Shown here piece after piece: positions 31,084-60,967 of a stretch of DNA of 64,000 nucleotides. Below the pieces are notes generated by a model. That model was not told the DNA's origin. It was given only the letters and a program-made list of their open reading frames with translations, and searched no databases. The stretch's first letter is position 1, and each line of letters opens with the position of its first letter. The position numbers and the translations under genes are program-made. The DNA is from a virus. Lineage: Duplodnaviria > Caudoviricetes. Location of the stretch: positions 74,510 through 138,509 of IMG/VR virus record IMGVR_UViG_3300021256_002629, one strand, 5' to 3'.

Positions 31084-31523
31084 TAATCAAATTTAAAAAA
31101 CTAGCGGACTCTGCAACATTGCCTCAGTATGTACATAAAGGTGATGCTGGAATGGACGTTAGTACTACAATCAAAGAACCAATTACGTTACAACCCCTTC
31201 AACGTTACTTATTTTCTACTGGCCTTTGTGCAGATATACCTTTAGGAGCAGAAATTCAAGTAAGACCGAGAAGTGGTTTAGCAGCTAAGCACGGAATCAC
31301 TGTTTTAAATTCTCCTGGAACAATAGATAGTGGGTATAAAGATGAAATTAAAATAATATTAATAAATCTTTCAAATGAACCCTTTACTATTAATCCAGGT
31401 GATCGTATTGCGCAATTCGTTATTAGTGAAATCAAAGATGTTACTGTTTTAGAAGCGACAGAAATTGATGAAACTGATAATCGTGGTGGAGGATTCGGAC
31501 ATTCTGGTATTGAAAAATTATGA
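31074..31523 (+). CDS. dut: dUTPase (trimeric)
   Basis: AGMD, PRSGLA, NSPGTIDSGY, GDRIAQ, RGGGFGHSG motifs. Confidence 0.95.
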   Translation: MGLIIKFKKLADSATLPQYVHKGDAGMDVSTTIKEPITLQPLQRYLFSTGLCADIPLGAEIQVRPRSGLAAKHGITVLNSPGTIDSGYKDEIKIILINLSNEPFTINPGDRIAQFVISEIKDVTVLEATEIDETDNRGGGFGHSGIEKL

Positions 31524-34094: not shown

Positions 34095-34703
34095 ATGACA
34101 GAAAAAGAAGCTGAAGATTTGTGTAGAATGATAAGAGTAGGAGTAGATTTAAGTAAGCCCAAGTACAATTATCATCCAAAAACAAAAGATGAATTAAAAT
34201 ATTTAGTTGAAAAACTAATTGAAGAAAGGGGAAATGAGGCAGATTTGAATGATGTTGACGTTTCCCAAATTAAAGATATGAGTTTGATATTTTATCAATC
34301 TAAATTTAACGGCGATATTTCTAATTGGGACGTTAGTAGAGTTGAGAATATGTGGTCGATGTTTAATAGTTCTCAATTTAATGGGGATATCTCAAAATGG
34401 AATGTTAGTAAAGTGAAGTGGATGAATGGAATGTTTTCTTGCTCTAAATTTAATGGTGATATTTCAAATTGGGATGTTAGTGGAGTGTGGAGGATGAGTG
34501 GGATGTTCTACAAGTCTCAATTTAATAGTGATATTTCAAAGTGGGATGTTAGTGGAGTGAAGGATATGGAAGTGATGTTTTACGGTTCTAAATTTAATGG
34601 GGATATTTCAAATTGGGATGTTAGTGGAGTTGAGAATATGGGTGGAATGTTTTGGGAATCTAAATTTAACGGCGATATCTCTAAATGGACTAAGAAACCA
34701 TAA
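34095..34703 (+). CDS. DUF285/BspA-like 24-aa repeat protein (6 repeats)
   Basis: MTEKEAEDLC leader, PKTK.EL...GNEADLND.DVS cap, (SxFNGDISxWxVSxVxxMxxMFxx)n. Confidence 0.9.
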   Translation: MTEKEAEDLCRMIRVGVDLSKPKYNYHPKTKDELKYLVEKLIEERGNEADLNDVDVSQIKDMSLIFYQSKFNGDISNWDVSRVENMWSMFNSSQFNGDISKWNVSKVKWMNGMFSCSKFNGDISNWDVSGVWRMSGMFYKSQFNSDISKWDVSGVKDMEVMFYGSKFNGDISNWDVSGVENMGGMFWESKFNGDISKWTKKP

Positions 34704-41101: not shown

Positions 41102-42298
41102 ATGAAGTACAATTATCAACCAAAAACGAAAAAGGAATTAAAAAGTCTTATCAAAAAATTAATTAAAAAAAGAGGAAATAAGGCAGATTTGAATGATGTT
41201 GATGTTTCTCAGATCACAGATATGAGTGGGTTGTTTACTAATTTTCAGTTTAATGGAAACATCTCAAATTGGAATGTTAGTAATGTTGAGGATATGAGTA
41301 ATATGTTTGAAGAGTCTAGATTTAATGGAGATATTTCAAAATGGGATGTTAGTAAGGTAAAGGATATGGGTGGAATGTTTAACTATTCTGAATTTAATGG
41401 AGATATTTCAAATTGGAATGTTATGAGGGTGGAGAATATGTCGATGATGTTCTATAATTCTGAATTTAATGGTGACATCTCAAATTGGAATGTGAGTAAG
41501 GTGGAAGATATGGGAGGAATGTTTTACGGTTCTCGATTTGACGGGGATATTTCTAACTGGGATGTTAGGAATGTGAAGAATATGTATGAGATGTTTATGG
41601 CATCTCGATTTAACGGAGATATTTCGAAATGGAACGTTAGTAATGTTGAGGATATGGGAGGAATGTTTGATAATTCTGAATTTAGTGGAGATATTTCAAA
41701 TTGGGATGTTAGTAGAGTTGAGAATATGTGGAGGATGTTTAATTGGTCTAAATTTAATGGAGATATCTCTAATTGGAATGTTAGTAAAGTTGAGGAGATG
41801 AATGAGATGTTTGCTTATTCTAAATTTAATGGAGATATTTCTAAGTGGAACGTTAGTAAGGTGGAGAACATGTGGGAAATGTTTGCTGGTTCTAAATTTA
41901 ACAAAGATATTTCAAAGTGGAATGTTAGTAATGTAAAGAATATGGGTGGGATGTTTCGAGAATCTAAATTCAACAAAGATATCTCAAAATGGGATGTTAG
42001 TAATGTTGAGAATATGGATGAGATGTTTATGACATCTCAATTCAATGGAAATATCTCTAATTGGAATGTTAGTAGAGTTGAAGATATGGAGGATATGTTT
42101 TGTGAGTCTAAATTTAACGGGGATATTTCAAAATGGGATGTTAGTAGGGTGAAGAATATGAGTTGTATGTTTCAGAGTTCTAAATTTAATGGAGACATTT
42201 CAAATTGGAATGTAAGTAAGGTTGAGGATATGGAGGATATGTTTGAAGATTCTCAATTTAATGGGGATATCTCTAGATGGACTAAGAAACCAGAATAA
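41102..42298 (+). CDS. DUF285/BspA-like repeat protein (~15 repeats, no MTEKEA leader)
   Basis: Starts MKYNYQPKT. Confidence 0.9.
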   Translation: MKYNYQPKTKKELKSLIKKLIKKRGNKADLNDVDVSQITDMSGLFTNFQFNGNISNWNVSNVEDMSNMFEESRFNGDISKWDVSKVKDMGGMFNYSEFNGDISNWNVMRVENMSMMFYNSEFNGDISNWNVSKVEDMGGMFYGSRFDGDISNWDVRNVKNMYEMFMASRFNGDISKWNVSNVEDMGGMFDNSEFSGDISNWDVSRVENMWRMFNWSKFNGDISNWNVSKVEEMNEMFAYSKFNGDISKWNVSKVENMWEMFAGSKFNKDISKWNVSNVKNMGGMFRESKFNKDISKWDVSNVENMDEMFMTSQFNGNISNWNVSRVEDMEDMFCESKFNGDISKWDVSRVKNMSCMFQSSKFNGDISNWNVSKVEDMEDMFEDSQFNGDISRWTKKPE

Positions 42299-42395
42299 AA
42301 AAAATAAAAAGAAGCCTGAATTAATTAATTTTAGTCCAGGTTTTATTTTCTTCTCAAAATCTTATTATTGAATATAAACTTTAAATTAAATTTAT

Positions 42396-43041
42396 ATGAA
42401 GTACAATTATCAACCAAAAGCGAAAAAGGAATTAAAGGATATTATTAAAAAACAGAACAAGTATGGTTATTTCTCTTATAGTTGCCGTTGCCGATAACGG
42501 AATCATCGGCAAGGAAAACGGGTTGCCATGGCATATTGGCGCCGACCTGAAGCGCTTTAAGGCCATTACAACGGGCCACACCATTCTGATGGGTAAGAAT
42601 ACCTATCTTTCTATAGGACGCCCGTTGCCTAACCGCCGCAATGTGGTGCTGAGCAGAAGCCTGACCGCTGCCGATGTGCCCGGCTGTGAGCTGATTGCCA
42701 GTTTGGACGAACTCGATAAACTGGGGTTGGAACCCGACGAAGAACTGTTCGTTATAGGCGGTGCCCGTGTGTATGAGCAGTTGATGCCCAAGGCCGACAA
42801 ACTGTATCTGACCAGGGTCCGTACACAGGCCGATGGGGACGTGAAATTCCCTGAAGTGGACTGGGACGAGTGGCAGCTTTGTAGCGAGACACACGGATTT
42901 GCAGACGAAAAAAACGATTTCGACTACTGCTTCCAAAACTATGAACGGAAGAAATGATAATGTCAAAAATGCCACTGTATGTGTTGGGAATCTAAATTTA
43001 ATGGAGACATTTCAAAATGGGCTAAGAAATCGACAGAATAA
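42396..43041 (+). pseudogene. DUF285 cassette whose interior is replaced by a foreign DHFR gene
   Basis: 42396-42452 encodes MKYNYQPKAKKELKDIIKK; ~42985-43041 encodes WESKFNGDISKWAKKSTE-stop. Confidence 0.85.
42463..42957 (+). CDS. folA: Dihydrofolate reductase, bacterial type, GC-rich
   Basis: LIVAVADNGIIG..NGLPWH...DLKRFK..T.G..ILMGKNTY.SIGRPLPNRRNVVLS, VIGGA.VY, GDVKFP; GC-ending codons unlike the rest of the window. Confidence 0.95.
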   Translation: MVISLIVAVADNGIIGKENGLPWHIGADLKRFKAITTGHTILMGKNTYLSIGRPLPNRRNVVLSRSLTAADVPGCELIASLDELDKLGLEPDEELFVIGGARVYEQLMPKADKLYLTRVRTQADGDVKFPEVDWDEWQLCSETHGFADEKNDFDYCFQNYERKK

Positions 43042-43123
43042 GATAAACCTAGATTAATTAATTTTAATCTGGGTTTTATTTTCTCCTCAAACTCTTATTT
43101 ATGAAACCTTTAATAATTTTATT

Positions 43124-44662
43124 ATGACAGAAAAAGAAGCAGAAGATTTGTGTAAAATGATAAGAGTAGGAGTAGATTTAAGTCCTAAAAAATATCAACC
43201 AAGAACAAAAGAAAAGTTAAAAGATCTCATTGAGAAACTAATTGAAGAAAGGGGAAATGAAGCAGACTTGAATGATATAGACGTTTCCCAAATTGAAGAC
43301 ATGAGTGAGGTGTTTGCTCATTCTCAATTTAATGGGGATATTTCTAATTGGGATGTTAGTGGAGTTGAGAAGATGAATTATATGTTTGCTGATTCTCAAT
43401 TCAAGGGAGATATTTCAAAATGGAACGTTAGTAAGGTGAAGGAAATGGGCGGAATGTTTTATAGTTCTGAATTTAATAGGGATATTTCAAGTTGGGATGT
43501 GAGTAATGTTGAGTATATGTTTGGAATGTTTTGCGGATCTAAATTTAATGGCGATATCTCTAATTGGAATGTAAGTAAAGTGAAGGATATGAATAGGATG
43601 TTTGAAGGTTCTGAATTTAATAGAGATATTCCTAGTTGGGACGTTAGTGGGGTTGAGTTTATGAATGAAATGTTTTCCAGTTCTCAATTCAATGGAGACA
43701 TTTCAAATTGGAATGTGAGTAGGGTGAAGGACATGAGTTATATGTTTAAAAAATCTCAATTTAATGGGGATATCTCAAAATGGAATGTTAGTGGAGTTGA
43801 GGATATGAGAGGGATGTTTACCTTTTCTCAATTTAATGGGGATATCTCAAAATGGAATGTTAGTGGAGTTGAGGATATGGGAAGAATGTTTTATAGTTCT
43901 CAATTTAATGGTGATATTTCTAGTTGGGATGTTAGTAATGTTAAGTATATGGGCGAGATGTTCGATAGTTCTCAATTCAATGGAAACATTTCGAATTGGG
44001 ATGTTAGTAATGTGAAGAGTATGATGGGCATGTTCCGAGATTCTCAGTTCAATGGAAATATTTCTAATTGGAACATTAGTAGCGTTGAGAATATGGATGA
44101 AATGTTTTATAGTTCTCAATTTAATGGTGATATTTCTAGTTGGGACGTTAGTGGAGTAAAGAGGATGAGTTATATGTTTGGTTTTTCTAACTTTAATGGA
44201 GATATCTCTAAATGGAATGTTAGTGGAGTTGAGGATATGTACAAAATGTTTTGCGGTTCTAAATTCAATGAGGATATTTCTAATTGGGATGTTAGAAAAG
44301 TGAAGAGTATGGTTGGAATGTTTTCCTACACTAAATTTAATGGAGATATCTCTAAATGGGATGTTAGTGGAGTTGAAGATATGGAGGAGATGTTTGCTAA
44401 TTCCGAATTCAATGGAGATATTTCAAATTGGAATGTTAGTAGGGTGAAGAAGATGGAAAGAATGTTTTATAAGTCTAAATTCAACGGTGATATCTCAAAA
44501 TGGGATGTTAGTAATGTTGAGAATATGTATGGAATGTTTGAAAGCTCTAAATTTAATGGGGATATTTCTAATTGGAATGTTAGTAGGGTGAAGTACATAT
44601 TTGGGATATTTGATAATTCTCAATTCAAAGGAGATATTTCAAAATGGGCTAAGAAACCATAA
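43124..44662 (+). CDS. DUF285/BspA-like repeat protein (~19 repeats)
   Basis: Same architecture. Confidence 0.9.
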   Translation: MTEKEAEDLCKMIRVGVDLSPKKYQPRTKEKLKDLIEKLIEERGNEADLNDIDVSQIEDMSEVFAHSQFNGDISNWDVSGVEKMNYMFADSQFKGDISKWNVSKVKEMGGMFYSSEFNRDISSWDVSNVEYMFGMFCGSKFNGDISNWNVSKVKDMNRMFEGSEFNRDIPSWDVSGVEFMNEMFSSSQFNGDISNWNVSRVKDMSYMFKKSQFNGDISKWNVSGVEDMRGMFTFSQFNGDISKWNVSGVEDMGRMFYSSQFNGDISSWDVSNVKYMGEMFDSSQFNGNISNWDVSNVKSMMGMFRDSQFNGNISNWNISSVENMDEMFYSSQFNGDISSWDVSGVKRMSYMFGFSNFNGDISKWNVSGVEDMYKMFCGSKFNEDISNWDVRKVKSMVGMFSYTKFNGDISKWDVSGVEDMEEMFANSEFNGDISNWNVSRVKKMERMFYKSKFNGDISKWDVSNVENMYGMFESSKFNGDISNWNVSRVKYIFGIFDNSQFKGDISKWAKKP

Positions 44663-47494: not shown

Positions 47495-48274
47495 ATGACG
47501 TACAATTATCAACCAAAAACGAAAGAGGAATTAAAAGATCTTATTAAAAAACTAATTGAAGAGAGGGGAAATTGGGCAAGTTTAAATGATATAGACGTTT
47601 CCCAAATTACGGATATGAGTGAATTATTTTATAAGTCTCAATTTAAAGGGACTATCTCTGATTGGAATGTTAGTAATGTGAAGGATATGCATAGTATGTT
47701 TGAAGATTCTCAATTTAACGATGACCTCTCTAAATGGGACGTTAGTAAGGTTGAGGATATGAGTAGAATGTTTTGGAATTCTAAATTTGATGGAGATATT
47801 TCTAATTGGAATACAAGTAAGGCGTTAAACTTATCTGGCAGTACTGCAATGAGATTAAATTGTGGACGTTTAAAAGCTGAAAAAATTGCACAATTGCCAA
47901 AAATTATTGAAAATAATTTTATTGAATCCACTAATAAAATTGATTTTAATAAACTTTTCACAATTCTTGAAATACCACTATGTGATCATTTTGAATTTCT
48001 TGCTACTCTCGAGGATTTTTCAACAGACACTGCTTTGCTGAAAAAGAAGTCAATCTATAAAGAAATAGTGAATATAGCAATGTTTAATGTGAGGTGCTAC
48101 ACTATTTATGACCTAATAAAAGAGGTGATAAGAGAGGATAAGTTGAGAGATGTATGGTGGCAGGATTTTAAGTTTGAACGCAGTAGTGCTTACAATTATA
48201 CATATAGGAAAGCTGCAATTACGATAATAAGTATGATAGTTACTATTGAATGCGTTATTAAAATGCCACTATAA
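47495..48274 (+). CDS. Chimeric protein: DUF285 cap + 3 repeats fused to unrelated ~150-aa domain
   Basis: Repeat pattern ends at ISNWNTSK (~47820), frame continues without repeats. Confidence 0.8.
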   Translation: MTYNYQPKTKEELKDLIKKLIEERGNWASLNDIDVSQITDMSELFYKSQFKGTISDWNVSNVKDMHSMFEDSQFNDDLSKWDVSKVEDMSRMFWNSKFDGDISNWNTSKALNLSGSTAMRLNCGRLKAEKIAQLPKIIENNFIESTNKIDFNKLFTILEIPLCDHFEFLATLEDFSTDTALLKKKSIYKEIVNIAMFNVRCYTIYDLIKEVIREDKLRDVWWQDFKFERSSAYNYTYRKAAITIISMIVTIECVIKMPL

Positions 48275-48276
48275 TC

Positions 48277-48786
48277 ATGGAAAGCGAAGAAATCTGTGCA
48301 AAATATCTACAATTAAACGATATTATATTGTATAATGGAAATAAATATAGAGTAAGTGAGCTGGACTTTTCTGCAATTGTTTTAGAAAGTATTGATCATT
48401 CACAAAAGATAACCGTTCCTGGAATTATTAATGGAACAGTTATAGAAGCCCCTAAAGAAGATACAGCAATAATCTCAGCAGAACAACTTATGCTTGATGA
48501 TTTAGTTTATCTTCCTGGAAACAATCTAAGACAATATAGGGTAAAGAAATTAAAAACTAACTCAATTACGCTAAAAGATGGTGACAGTGAATTTATAATA
48601 AGTAAGGTAAACGGAATTCCACTAAGAGAGGATATTATACGAGATTATGAATACCCTTTTATAGAAATTGAAGGCAATAACTTTTTTATCTTTAGCAAAA
48701 ATAATGAGTTCCCTTCACCAAAAAATATACGCTACCTTCATGAATTTCAGCATATACTCAATGAATTCGATGTAAATAGTCTATAA
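48277..48786 (+). CDS. Hypothetical protein (internal duplication, YopX-like flavour)
   Basis: AKYLQLNDII...YRV and AEQLMLDDLV...YRV halves; C-terminal IRYLHEFQHIL. Confidence 0.6.
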   Translation: MESEEICAKYLQLNDIILYNGNKYRVSELDFSAIVLESIDHSQKITVPGIINGTVIEAPKEDTAIISAEQLMLDDLVYLPGNNLRQYRVKKLKTNSITLKDGDSEFIISKVNGIPLREDIIRDYEYPFIEIEGNNFFIFSKNNEFPSPKNIRYLHEFQHILNEFDVNSL

Positions 48787-51558: not shown

Positions 51559-52071
51559 TTAGTCTTCTTTATCTTTTCTTCGACCTTTTAAATACATACC
51601 ACCTCCTGCGGCAGCTGAAGCGGCTGAGATACCCATTCCCCAGCGTGCTTTTCGTAATGCTTTATCAATCTTTTTATTCTCAGCAAGCACCTTCTCTACT
51701 GGCACACGATTCTCGTCCATAATCTTATGATAAGATTCCTCATAGAGTCTACCAAGTTGATCTTTCTTTATATTAAACCATGCAGGTGACTTTCTTCCCC
51801 TTTTGGCTCCTTCCCGTGCCAGCCATTTTAATCTCTGAATTTCTTCTTTTTCTTTAGCAGCGAGTTCTTTTTTAGCTAGCGAATTTTTAATGTCCGCCTC
51901 GGCAGCTGCTACATCAAGCTCTTTCTTACCTTTTTTTTGTGCTTCTTTCAGGTCTTTAGCCAACATAGAACTTGAATAAACCCCTACTCCGCCAAGTAGA
52001 GCGAGTCCTTCTCCGACATTAGAAAGATTGTTATTTTCTTCACTGAAGAATCTTTGTCTTATAATTCTCAT
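51559..52071 (-). CDS. Basic hypothetical protein with MRIIRQRFF N-terminus and Gly/Ala-rich hydrophobic segments
   Basis: ORF; shared N-terminal motif with two neighbours. Confidence 0.75.
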   Translation of the reverse strand: MRIIRQRFFSEENNNLSNVGEGLALLGGVGVYSSSMLAKDLKEAQKKGKKELDVAAAEADIKNSLAKKELAAKEKEEIQRLKWLAREGAKRGRKSPAWFNIKKDQLGRLYEESYHKIMDENRVPVEKVLAENKKIDKALRKARWGMGISAASAAAGGGMYLKGRRKDKED

Positions 52072-52085
52072 AAACTACACTTTTT

Positions 52086-52451
52086 TTATCTACACCGTCT
52101 GTATATCATACCTCCGGATTCTTTAGGATTTTTCATTGCTGCTAAGACTGCCTGTTCCTTAGTAAGATAACGTTCTACTTCTCCAAGCTCTTTATCGTTT
52201 ATAAAAAATGGTTTAACATTTCCTTGAATTCGATGTTCTATCATAGCAGCTTCCCCTGGACTACCAAATACAGAAGCGATACCTTTCTTTACTTTATGTT
52301 TGAATTTATTAAAGCCAGTCATAGGAACTCCCCAAGGCCTACTAACAACGTCAAGAGCTGTTCCTGATATTTTAGATCCAGACGCAGACTTCCATGCATT
52401 AAAAAGAGCATCCGTCTTAGCATTAAATACCTTCTGTCTAACTATTCTCAT
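52086..52451 (-). CDS. Basic hypothetical protein with MRIVRQKVF N-terminus
   Basis: ORF; shared N-terminal motif; LTKEQ also in neighbour. Confidence 0.75.
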   Translation of the reverse strand: MRIVRQKVFNAKTDALFNAWKSASGSKISGTALDVVSRPWGVPMTGFNKFKHKVKKGIASVFGSPGEAAMIEHRIQGNVKPFFINDKELGEVERYLTKEQAVLAAMKNPKESGGMIYRRCR

Positions 52452-52455
52452 ATTA

Positions 52456-52785
52456 TTAAAAAATTCCCACTCCTAAAGAGACAGCTTTGTTTTTCTTTTC
52501 TTTTATCTCTTTTAAAAGTTGTTTTTTAGCCTGCTTATCATGTAAAGGGTCTCTATATCCTATATGTTCCTTAGCAAAAGTATTATTCAAGCGCAAATTA
52601 CCTCTTCTTATTTGTCTTAGGGCTATCTGCTCTTTTGTTAGCTCTCTACCAAGCTTATCTATACCAGTTCCTGAATTTTTGACTGCTTTAGATATTTTAA
52701 GTTTATCTCGTAATCCTGCATTTTTAATAGCCTTCAAATTTAACTCAGTAGCTAAAGTAAAAGTTCTTTGTCGTAATATTCTCAT
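52456..52785 (-). CDS. Basic hypothetical protein with MRILRQRTF N-terminus
   Basis: ORF; shared N-terminal motif. Confidence 0.75.
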   Translation of the reverse strand: MRILRQRTFTLATELNLKAIKNAGLRDKLKISKAVKNSGTGIDKLGRELTKEQIALRQIRRGNLRLNNTFAKEHIGYRDPLHDKQAKKQLLKEIKEKKNKAVSLGVGIF

Positions 52786-53128: not shown

Positions 53129-53746
53129 ATGACGGAAAAAGAAGCAGAGGATTTATGTAGAATGGTGAGAATAGGGGTAGATTTAAGTAAGAATAAGTAT
53201 AATTATCATCCAAAAACAAGAGAGGAATTAAAAGATCTAATTGGAAAACTAATTAAAGAAAGGGGAAATGAGGCAGATTTGAATGATATAGACGTTTCCG
53301 GAATTACAGATATGACTCATATGTTTTATGGGTCTGAATTTAATGGAGATATTTCAGAATGGGACGTTAGAGGAGTAAAGAATATGCAAGGAATGTTTTA
53401 TGGGTCTGAATTTAATGGCGATATCTCTGGCTGGAATGTTAGGAAGGTTGAGGATATGGACGGAATGTTTGAGAGTTCTAAATTTAATGGTGATATTTCA
53501 GGATGGAATGTTAGTAATGTTGCGGATATGGGTTATATGTTCTACAAGTCTCAATTTAATGGAGATATTTCAGAATGGGGCGTTAGTAAGGTTGAGAATA
53601 TGGAATGGATGTTTTATGGATCTGAATTTAATGGTAATATTTCTAATTGGGACGTTAGTAATGTTAGGTATATGAGTGGGATGTTCAGTGATTCTAAATT
53701 TAATGGAGATATCTCAAAATGGGCTAAGAAACCAACAGATTATTAA
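53129..53746 (+). CDS. DUF285/BspA-like repeat protein (6 repeats)
   Basis: Same architecture. Confidence 0.9.
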   Translation: MTEKEAEDLCRMVRIGVDLSKNKYNYHPKTREELKDLIGKLIKERGNEADLNDIDVSGITDMTHMFYGSEFNGDISEWDVRGVKNMQGMFYGSEFNGDISGWNVRKVEDMDGMFESSKFNGDISGWNVSNVADMGYMFYKSQFNGDISEWGVSKVENMEWMFYGSEFNGNISNWDVSNVRYMSGMFSDSKFNGDISKWAKKPTDY

Positions 53747-58593: not shown

Positions 58594-58785
58594 GTGATGA
58601 AAAACAAAGTATTTGTATTTAACAAGACCGGAAATAGTTATCTGGTTCTTGAGGAAGGTGAAATGAAAGACCCCTCCACTAGAGAATGGCTTAAAAGTGT
58701 GGTGTATAAATCCCTAGAAACTGGGAATATTTATACAAGAGAGTTGAATGACTTTTTAAATAAATTTAGTATAAAGAATGATTAA
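58594..58785 (+). CDS. DUF1653-like small protein
   Basis: Y.V...VVYKSL...IYTR....F..KF pattern. Confidence 0.6.
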   Translation: MMKNKVFVFNKTGNSYLVLEEGEMKDPSTREWLKSVVYKSLETGNIYTRELNDFLNKFSIKND

Positions 58786-60967
58786 TAAGCAGGACATAAC
58801 GGTTAACAAAAAAAGAAAAGGATTTACAGAACCCTTTGATGAAACCAAAATTCATGCAGCAATTAGAAAAAGTGCTGAAAGAATTCTTCAAGTGATGTCG
58901 GATGACGATTGTAAAAAAGTATCACAGAGAGTATTGGAGTTAATAACTGATAAAGAAATTGGTGTTAAAAAGCTCCACAGATTAGTTGAAGTAGCTCTTG
59001 ATGATACTGGATTTTATAAGGTAGCGGAATCCTACAGACAATATCGAAATTACAAGGAGGATTCTCAAAGAATTATGGAGGCTGTTGATGCCAAAACATT
59101 GGAACTTTCTTATAAAGAAGATAGATCTAATGCCAATTGTGACAGTACATTAGTAAGTACTAAGCGAAGTATTTTGTATGGTGAGATGCAGAAAGAGAAG
59201 TATGAACGAATTTTCCTTTCTGTAGAGGAACTTGAAGCTATTAAAGATGGTTATTTGTACATTCATGACAGATCTGCTCGTTGGGATACTTATAATTGTT
59301 CAGTTCAAAATTATAAGAATATCTTGAAAGGCGGGTTCACTTTGTCAAATACTGAGTACAATGAACCACAATCAGCTGCTGCGGCTATTGCAGTATTGTC
59401 TGACGTAATGAACGTGATAGCAAGTAATCAGTATGGAGGTAATACGGTACCTGAGATAGATGATATTCTGGACGAATATTGTGAAAAGTCTTATCAGTTC
59501 TATCTTAAACAGTATTATGAAATAAGAGAAGGACTAGATGTGGACCCTGAGAAAGCTGATAAATTTGCTGAAGAAAGGGTAAGGAGAGAACTTGCACAAG
59601 GATTTCAGTCTATCGAGCTAACCTTTAATAGCGTTAGTTCTAGTCGAGGTGATTTCCCATTCATAGCAGTAACCTTCGGACATCGTACTTCTAGATGGGC
59701 AGCACTAGTTTCGTCCGTAATTCTTCAAGTTAGAAAAGAGGGACAAGGAAAACCAGGACATAAAATTCCTGTGGTATTTCCTAAACTGATATTTATTTAT
59801 GATTCAGAACTTCACGGACCAGGCAAAGAACTTGAGTGGTTATTTAAAGAGGCAGTGGAATGTACAAAAATAGCCCAATATCCAGACTACTTGAGCCTAG
59901 ATTTGCCAGCTGAAGGAGAATCTCCTAACTATATTGGAGAGGTTTATCATAAATGGGGCTGTGTGGTTTCTCCAATGGGCTGCAGAAGTTTTATTAGTCC
60001 GATGTTCAAAAACTCAGGAACTTGGGAACCAGCAGATGATAATGATGAATTCCTATACCACAGATGTAATTTAGGTGTTATAGCTTTGAATCTTCCTATG
60101 ATTTATCAAAAATCCAAGGTAGAACAAAAGGAATATCATGAAGTTCTTGATTATTACTTGGAACTTACTAGAGGAATTCATAAAAGAACCTTTGATTATC
60201 TCTGCAAGCTTAAAGCATCTTCTAGTCCACTTGCTTTCTGTGAAGGAGGTCTTGACGGAGGATACCTTAACCCAGATGACTGTATAGCACCAGTATTAAA
60301 GAACTCAACTCTTAGTTTCGGCTATGGAGGACTTAATGAATTATCTTTATTAGCTACCGGAAAACCATTACACGAATTTCAAGACTTTGCTGTAGCTGAA
60401 TTAAAGTATATTTCAGACAAGTGTGCAGAATTTAAGAAACAAGATGGTCTTCTTTACGCTGCTTATGGAATTCCTGGAGAAACAGCTCTTCCATTAATGA
60501 ATGATCAGTTTATTAAGAAGTATGGAGAAGTTCCAGGAATCATTAAGAAAGGAGGATACTTGAGCAATAGTTTTCATTGTCATGTCACTGCAGATGTAAC
60601 CCCAATAGAAAAGATGGATATTGAGAGTAAGTTCTGGAATTACTCTAACGGCGGAAAGATTTCTCATATCTCTATAAATAATATCAAGAATACAGAAGGA
60701 ATCATTTCTCTAATTCGTTATGGAATGTCTAAGGGATTGTATCTAGGTGTAAATCATCCAGAGAATCATTGTATAGATTGTTCAAGTCACTGGGAAGGAA
60801 ATGACCATGAAGACGATATTGACAGTTTGTGCCCTATTTGTGGAAGCGGAAATATAGTTAAGATAAGAAGAATGAACGGATATTTATCTTACACTAGAAC
60901 TCGCTCAGGCAAAGCAAGATTTCATGAAGGAAAACTGAAGGAAATTAAAGACAGGGTAAATATGTAA
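58778..60967 (+). CDS. nrdD: Anaerobic (class III) ribonucleoside-triphosphate reductase
   Basis: N-terminal ATP cone, YIHD, YNC, PVVFPKL, MGCRSF, CxxC...CPICGS, RRMNGYL glycyl-radical motif. Confidence 0.95.
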   Translation: MINKQDITVNKKRKGFTEPFDETKIHAAIRKSAERILQVMSDDDCKKVSQRVLELITDKEIGVKKLHRLVEVALDDTGFYKVAESYRQYRNYKEDSQRIMEAVDAKTLELSYKEDRSNANCDSTLVSTKRSILYGEMQKEKYERIFLSVEELEAIKDGYLYIHDRSARWDTYNCSVQNYKNILKGGFTLSNTEYNEPQSAAAAIAVLSDVMNVIASNQYGGNTVPEIDDILDEYCEKSYQFYLKQYYEIREGLDVDPEKADKFAEERVRRELAQGFQSIELTFNSVSSSRGDFPFIAVTFGHRTSRWAALVSSVILQVRKEGQGKPGHKIPVVFPKLIFIYDSELHGPGKELEWLFKEAVECTKIAQYPDYLSLDLPAEGESPNYIGEVYHKWGCVVSPMGCRSFISPMFKNSGTWEPADDNDEFLYHRCNLGVIALNLPMIYQKSKVEQKEYHEVLDYYLELTRGIHKRTFDYLCKLKASSSPLAFCEGGLDGGYLNPDDCIAPVLKNSTLSFGYGGLNELSLLATGKPLHEFQDFAVAELKYISDKCAEFKKQDGLLYAAYGIPGETALPLMNDQFIKKYGEVPGIIKKGGYLSNSFHCHVTADVTPIEKMDIESKFWNYSNGGKISHISINNIKNTEGIISLIRYGMSKGLYLGVNHPENHCIDCSSHWEGNDHEDDIDSLCPICGSGNIVKIRRMNGYLSYTRTRSGKARFHEGKLKEIKDRVNM

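Follow-up and report, generated by a model that had tools for sequence, protein, structure and literature searches.

A host dihydrofolate reductase gene captured inside a DUF285 repeat-gene cassette of a rumen phage

Introduction

How does a complete bacterial gene come to lie between the first and the last codons of a phage repeat gene, and what has become of it there? This question is raised by a folA gene, encoding dihydrofolate reductase (DHFR), which lies within the final 64 kb of an IMG/VR virus contig of 138.5 kb. This whole stretch of 64,000 nucleotides is what was analysed; it is called the window here, and coordinates refer to it unless stated otherwise. According to CheckV the contig is about 40% complete, and the genome, that of an uncultivated jumbo phage from the rumen, probably exceeds 300 kb (about 345 kb by this estimate).

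Our account is that a phage took up the folA gene of its host by microhomology-guided joining, that the gene would be expressed as one of the phage cassettes and that its product would serve tetrahydrofolate supply. As a whole it is considered likely, and its single parts differ in strength as described below. Host-to-phage transfers that can be read base by base are rare. Here the donor locus, three joints, the stump of a neighbouring gene and the population history after the capture are all legible, and the locus offers a natural example in which to follow auxiliary metabolic genes on their way into phage genomes and to gauge the speed of their amelioration. A literature search on DUF285 in phages, on rumen jumbo phages and on microhomology capture gave nothing specific to this element.

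Structure of the folA cassette

The 138.5-kb contig carries 38 DUF285 (PF03382) genes in two arrays. As seen in the unit alignment, they are spaced by a strongly conserved unit, in which a hairpin and a T-run precede an A/T-rich leader of about 50 nt. Mean GC content of the contig is 0.329 (sd 0.044, windows of 200 nt), and the GC-rich stretch at about 42453-42987 reaches 0.575 in windows of the same size, the maximum of all 138.5 kb. The following features are distinguished in and around this stretch:

42299-42395, plus strand: standard inter-cassette unit with hairpin 42315-42340, T-run 42341-42349 and conserved A/T-rich leader up to the ATG
42396-42452, plus strand: N-terminal DUF285 stump of 19 codons, MKYNYQPKAKKELKDIIKK (from translation)
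42446-42452, plus strand: 5' junction, TAAAAAA (7 nt); the blastn match to donor locus L002 starts at 42446
42454-42983, plus strand: unambiguous donor DNA, comprising 9 nt of folA leader, folA and the start of a beta-carbonic-anhydrase gene
42463-42957, plus strand: host-derived DHFR gene folA, complete ORF of 164 aa (PF00186; 100% aa identity to FolA of UBA3297)
42908-42914, plus strand: A7 run within folA (alignment; proteins P0132, P0133, P0135)
42948-42954, plus strand: internal junction, GAAGAAA, a 7-nt direct repeat of the donor of which one copy is left
42954-42987, plus strand: remnant of the next donor gene, the first 11 signal-peptide codons of a beta-carbonic anhydrase (matches L002 3580-3613)
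42977-42987, plus strand: 3' junction, exact TTGG at 42984-42987 inside an 11-nt stretch that matches the paralogs in 10 of 11 positions
42985-43041, plus strand: C-terminal DUF285 stump, last 18 codons WESKFNGDISKWAKKSTE plus stop, in a frame with no start
43045-43123, plus strand: next inter-cassette unit, terminator-like hairpin 43045-43076 followed by a leader (terminator scan, unit alignment)

The unit in front of the cassette aligns with those upstream of other DUF285 genes (38 in the contig) and belongs to a subclass common to the genes at 41102 and 47495. A family of direct repeats (D1) ties it to 43040-43105. It is presumed to represent the terminator of the preceding gene together with the promoter and leader of the folA cassette. 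The DNA of the N-terminal stump is near-identical to that with which the paralogs at 41102, 39511 and 47495 begin. The C-terminal stump matches paralogs that end in ...MFWESKFNGDISKWAKKP..., a region with a second direct-repeat family (D2). Downstream of the cassette a DUF285 gene of 512 aa begins at 43124.

Two short reading frames result from this arrangement. The frame opened by the N-terminal stump continues to a stop at 42495-42497 (33 codons), out of frame with folA and overlapping its start. After folA a frame of 13 codons opens in the ATGA overlap at 42954-42957 and ends at a phage stop (42993-42995).

Every cassette element named in the earlier sequence-only reading, i.e. the unit, the 19-codon stump, the DHFR gene, the ATGA overlap, the C-terminal stump and the terminator, was found in its place. 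The suspicion voiced there, that the donor's next gene is represented by its first codons, is borne out: the match to L002 reveals 11 codons of a beta-carbonic-anhydrase gene. The same reading had seen no hallmarks of a mobile element, in agreement with our searches: neither inverted repeats nor a target duplication bracket the insert, and no match to tyrosine integrases (PF00589) is present in the 138.5-kb contig, which covers about 40% of the genome.

Identity of the enzyme

The folA product aligns with positions 2-159 of the 159 positions of the DHFR profile PF00186 (E 1.8e-57; 193.9 bits against a cut-off of 25), matches PHROG 316 at 2.8e-46 and, by phmmer, the solved DHFR 8uvz_A over residues 3-163 (E 2.9e-46). 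Conserved in the latter alignment are LPWH, ..DL.., IGRPLPNR and VIGGA. The ..DL.. element provides the acidic residue equivalent to Asp27 of E. coli, and the motifs for substrate and NADPH are retained. As far as profile and motif comparisons tell, we are dealing with an ordinary chromosomal DHFR of the FolA type. An acquired trimethoprim-resistant Dfr was considered and rejected: DfrI, the best NCBIfam model, gave 151.9 bits against a cut-off of 400, and DfrA, DfrD/G/K and others scored far below.

Phage DHFRs have long been known; they regenerate tetrahydrofolate for the synthesis of thymidylate and nucleotides. With T4 frd and the other members of PHROG 316 the protein shares the enzyme family and, with T4 frd, the expected role, namely tetrahydrofolate for thymidylate synthesis in phage DNA replication. 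It differs from this lineage in that its identity to any phage record does not exceed 47% aa (50,697 phage records, 1,892 of which match DHFR), and no relatives of it were found in IMG/VR. Unlike phage DHFRs such as T4 frd it is encoded by an unameliorated host allele, with no adjacent thymidylate synthase gene in the contig.

Donor locus and direction of transfer

The search for a donor covered one genome per prokaryotic species. A foreign Bacteroidales donor had been predicted from the letters, with a near-identical BLASTn match of the insert as the expected sign of it, and such a match was found on a 366.8-kb contig of the Bacteroidales MAG UBA3297 (locus L002). The two FolA proteins are identical over all 164 residues, and the DNA identity amounts to 98.4% for the window and to 99.4% for the closest phage haplotype. 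Two segments align by blastn: 42446-42954 with L002 2984-3492 (98.4% nt, 8 mismatches, no gaps), and 42945-42987 with L002 3571-3613 (95% nt). The gene order of the donor locus is dxr-rseP-folA-beta-carbonic anhydrase, the last gene (L002 3580-4305) being assigned to PF00484 (Pro_CA) and having a lipoprotein-type signal peptide. This order is kept in L002-L005, L064 and L065, and also where the bacterial FolA proteins show only 63-90% aa identity; mostly these are Paludibacteraceae-like MAGs from rumen and horse gut.

In the phylogenetic tree the phage copies of folA form a tip cluster with UBA3297 that is nested in a ladder of bacterial folA genes. The GC content at third codon positions (GC3) is 0.61 in the phage folA, 0.24-0.33 in phage genes and 0.55-0.62 in donor genes. 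Because of the nested tree, the gene order, the donor-like GC3 and the lack of a close phage DHFR, these comparisons show that the gene moved from the bacterium to the phage.

Variation at the bacterial locus itself was also observed. In two relatives (L065:4184-6336 and L067:1812-3958) two LRR_5 genes, encoding BspA-like leucine-rich repeat proteins, lie directly 3' of the carbonic-anhydrase gene, so repeat-protein genes adjoin the donor-type locus in bacterial relatives as well. A further bacterial folA (L051:287-781) is a mosaic, the ends of which resemble the L003 lineage and the middle of which resembles the UBA3297 lineage. This suggests homologous exchange at the folA locus between related Bacteroidales species.

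Distribution and age of the capture

The exact 164-aa protein is encoded on 13 ENA contigs. Junctions identical to those of the window occur in the ENA loci L044, L045, L046, L048, L049 and L050 and in the phage contigs L052 and L053, and three further ENA places with phage context carry the exact protein. The chimeric arrangement is thus present in at least eight other independent rumen assemblies, from cattle and other rumen samples, one of which belongs to the cow-rumen project PRJEB21624. At least five haplotypes can be distinguished, and their flanks differ from the window by 2-3%. Among themselves the phage copies of folA differ by 0-4 of 492 nt; compared with UBA3297 over the same 492 nt there are 3 differences in L048-50 (99.4% identity), 5 in L044-46 and 7 in the window. 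In IMG/VR a scan for the junction pattern matched only the record of the contig itself, and a search for relatives of the phage via an array ORFan found none.

Since the junctions are identical in at least five haplotypes, the capture was a single event, older than the phage population sampled, yet the gene bears no trace of amelioration. The replacement had been called very recent. This holds for composition, which is unameliorated as judged from the GC3 values given above, but not for age within the population, because the capture is older than the split of at least five haplotypes with flanks about 2% apart. The neighbourhood has changed in the meantime: upstream of the folA cassette some strains have one gene of 398 aa and others two genes of 206 aa and 223 aa, and a downstream neighbour exists in two lengths, 584 aa or 466 aa, depending on the strain. 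The folA cassette persists while the adjoining array genes vary between strains.

Two explanations that would deny a capture from the host have to be weighed against these data. That an assembler merely joined phage reads with bacterial reads is hardly credible, even though such joins do occur in this material: at the end of L047 a phage folA runs into the host rseP, and one contig of bacterial DNA stops precisely at codon 164. In the window, however, phage DNA flanks the insert on both sides, and eight assemblies made from different samples with different assemblers share the outer junctions as well as a 78-nt deletion that is absent from bacterial copies. Chimeric assembly had been named in advance as a finding that would speak against the capture; it does not hold, with eight further contigs spanning both outer junctions identically. 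The other case named in advance, namely closest homologs among long-resident phage DHFRs, does not hold either, the best phage match being at 47% aa. DHFR genes are indeed common in phages, as the 1,892 matching records show, but the best of them is this distant and IMG/VR holds no relative, whereas the bacterial relatives at 63-90% aa share a conserved gene order. Moreover, the composition of folA is host-like and it is the phage in which the bacterial neighbour gene survives as a truncated piece. Gene order and composition, together with the nested tree, refute a resident phage enzyme as well as a transfer from phage to bacterium, and we attach practically no probability to either.

The assembly breaks mentioned are instructive in themselves. 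L047:1-1500 forms the end of a phage contig of 149 kb from another sample; there a phage-type folA leads directly into a final 946 nt with 100% identity to the donor rseP. This is a true assembly chimera, the switch having been made by the assembler inside the 0.5 kb that phage and donor have in common. The other example, GCA_001684375.1, is the bacterial contig that stops precisely at folA codon 164. Near-identical segments of host and phage, as in these two contigs, break or mis-join metagenome contigs.

Joints and mode of joining

The sequence-only reading had the interior of a DUF285 gene replaced at short look-alike sequences, and such sequences were identified at both outer joints. At the 5' joint, TAAAAAA is common to the phage codons I-K-K and to the donor folA leader, the phage-side sequence being carried by the paralogs at 41102 and 47495. 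The adjacent base 42453 is ambiguous (the donor has T, every phage copy C). At the 3' joint, TTGG is common to the donor and to the MFWES codons of intact paralogs (contig position 53644, window position 34647). The ancestral phage-side sequence at these two outer joints is reconstructed from paralogs.

A third joint lies within the donor DNA. GAAGAAA is found twice in the donor, 78 nt apart (L002 3486-3492 and 3564-3570), and once in the phage (42948-42954). With the 78-nt deletion the donor spacer was lost, the DHFR became one lysine shorter (...ERKKK to ...ERKK) and the ATGA overlap, which is not native to the donor, was created. This deletion occurs in all phage copies and in no bacterial copy seen. 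At random junctions between phage and donor the microhomology averages 0.70 nt (P(>=4)=0.018, P(>=7)=0.0004), and by this measure the three joints of 7, 7 and 4 nt are far from chance.

We suggest that the phage infected a member of the Bacteroidales conspecific with UBA3297 and that a replicating or broken phage copy took up about 530 nt of the host chromosome by illegitimate, microhomology-guided joining. In this way the interior of a DUF285 gene would have been swapped for the host folA plus the first 11 codons of the carbonic-anhydrase gene. Serial template switching during recombination-dependent replication could yield all three joints, and three joints within about 0.5 kb fit such a process. 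Microhomology-mediated break-induced replication, or serial template switching, is known from bacterial and eukaryotic rearrangements. The locus resembles it in its joints of 4-7 nt, which are clustered within about 0.5 kb and one of which is a skip on the same template; it differs in that the pattern is read from the end product alone.

The joints could also have arisen by an alternative route with more than one event. Two illegitimate crossovers would then have inserted folA with the full spacer, and slippage between the GAAGAAA repeats would have removed the 78 nt afterwards, although early. Slippage between direct repeats of 7 nt is a common mutation and the deletion is internal to the donor DNA, so we give this sequence of events a little less than an even chance; against it, every phage copy seen has the deletion and none has the spacer.

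Relatives with an intact DUF285 gene at the site, which the sequence-only reading had wished to see, did not come to light. Exact-pattern scans for the N- and C-terminal stumps in IMG/VR and for the N-terminal stump in the JGI metagenomes gave no uninterrupted allele. Exact look-ups of both neighbour proteins led only to contigs that carry folA too, and a query of the joined stumps with a paralog-like linker retrieved generic DUF285 matches, none with words specific to the stumps.

Expression and use of the captured gene

Judging from its position, folA is probably transcribed like its DUF285 neighbours, starting from the upstream unit of the cassette and ending at the hairpin 43045-43076. A scan for sigma-70 promoters was uninformative here (22 found, 17.9 expected). 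Translation would start in the native A-rich context, 9-17 nt of the native leader being retained at the folA start, downstream of the leftover 33-codon ORF. This out-of-frame ORF could dampen translation. During phage replication thymidylate and nucleotide synthesis would draw on tetrahydrofolate regenerated by the enzyme. The phage has other genes of nucleotide metabolism, e.g. NrdD; thymidylate synthases (ThyA, ThyX) are absent from the 138.5 kb, i.e. from about 40% of the genome.

Among the phage haplotypes there are about 6 synonymous and 3 replacement changes in folA; where all changes of a contig are synonymous the pattern is biased, those contigs having been retrieved by exact protein identity. 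The replacement variants are T40A/I, S80N, G52V and L139R. In two contigs of one and the same project the A7 run is lengthened, to A9 in L052 and to A8 in L053, and the last residues (about 14) are frameshifted. Either one phage lineage is really decaying here, or the homopolymer length is an error of assembly or sequencing. Because of the two frameshifted haplotypes and the several replacement variants, selection for the enzyme is not demonstrated.

We lean slightly towards an expressed and useful enzyme. The capture may also be real and the gene a mere passenger, neutral or transiently useful, which hitch-hiked to high frequency and is now starting to decay. The frameshifted copies and the replacement variants just described would fit such a fate, as would the out-of-frame ORF overlapping the folA start, the lack of a thymidylate synthase in the contig and the fact that the host already supplies an identical enzyme. 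Against this, the ORF is intact and its protein identical in 13 contigs with at least three haplotypes whose flanks are about 2% apart, the changes are mostly synonymous and the cassette was kept while adjacent array genes came and went; the differences in homopolymer length could moreover be errors of assembly or sequencing. On balance the passenger explanation seems rather unlikely to us.

The likely host

The sequence-only reading expected the donor to identify a host, and the donor locus does point to one: a UBA3297-like bacterium of the Bacteroidales, related to Paludibacteraceae, is the likely host, a lead at species level drawn from the captured sequence. Such an assignment is otherwise hard to get for an uncultivated jumbo phage from the rumen in whose genome DUF285 repeat genes predominate. 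The false join in L047 shows that the phage and the donor species occur in the same sample. Shine-Dalgarno-like motifs are little used in Bacteroidota. Upstream of the phage ORFs they are depleted (3.9% against a background of 12%), which fits initiation in the style of Bacteroidota and a host from this phylum.

When window positions 1-38500 were compared with UBA3297 and three related MAGs for CRISPR spacers or other DNA links, only matches of 23 nt at chance level were obtained; the best of these falls in a normal coding sequence, where no repeat array is present. A stretch of 149 nt (31266-31414) is 73% identical to positions 936-1084 of a short contig (G003:C66) of a Paludibacteraceae MAG from horse faeces. 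This stretch possibly stems from a related phage or from a prophage fragment binned with the MAG.

Relation to known systems

The sequence-only reading regarded the array as a platform for gene capture and expression. If so, host DNA would land preferentially in the DUF285 arrays, with no integrase involved. Replication would often stall or break at the dense 72-nt repeats and repair would proceed by microhomology-guided template switching, and the terminator, promoter and leader of each unit would allow a copied-in host fragment to be expressed at once. The folA cassette would then be the one capture young enough to be recognised. This generalisation did not find support: folA is a single case, no second compositionally foreign island is present in the 138.5 kb, and the other ORFs within the arrays that are not DUF285 genes are AT-rich ORFans with no family match. 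Nor was an independent capture of folA detected elsewhere, the relatives at 84-95% aa (P0004, P0006, P0007 and P0127) all being bacterial with native gene order. P0127 (164 aa) had been a candidate for a diverged phage copy and was rejected, its contig being bacterial and a mosaic of two bacterial lineages. We therefore hold a platform role of the arrays to be improbable.

By analogy, integron cassettes are comparable, since there too an array of units bounded by promoters and terminators lends its resident signals to the expression of a foreign gene. In contrast with integrons, no integrase is found in the contig (about 40% of the genome), the junctions show no attC-like inverted repeats and lie inside coding sequence, and the two arrays of 38 genes contain a single foreign gene.

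Host-derived auxiliary genes, or morons, enter tailed phages by illegitimate recombination, and the classical moron has its own promoter and terminator. The folA cassette is similar in being a compositionally foreign single gene among phage genes, with very short homologies at its junctions, with no transposase, integrase or repeats and with a plausible metabolic benefit. It differs from the classical moron in that it has no promoter and terminator of its own, sits inside a resident gene and would use the signals of the phage cassette. Also unusual is that the donor is still identifiable at 99.4% nt and that three breakpoints and the stump of a neighbour gene are readable. Composition is foreign and matches the donor, and the gene is nested in a cellular clade with conserved gene order. 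Illegitimate recombination has been proposed as a source of phage mosaicism (PMC2327257). The folA cassette is a clear and well-resolved case of this known process, i.e. of host gene uptake by illegitimate recombination, and not a new one.

Further observations in the window

Other parts of the array are irregular, too. The cassette at 47495-48786 contains a DUF285 gene with just three repeats followed by an unrelated tail of about 150 aa, and a 169-aa ORFan adjoins this gene with no spacer between them. Both the tail and the ORFan are AT-rich, and no match to them was found in Pfam, PHROG or NCBIfam. This cassette may represent an older or phage-internal swap of a cassette interior. At 51559-52785 three small ORFan genes on the minus strand, for which no family matches were obtained, break the DUF285 array, and the local GC skew is reversed. 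Directly after the array, at 58778-60967, follows NrdD, an anaerobic ribonucleotide reductase with an ATP-cone; its presence fits an anaerobic host and a nucleotide supply driven by the phage.
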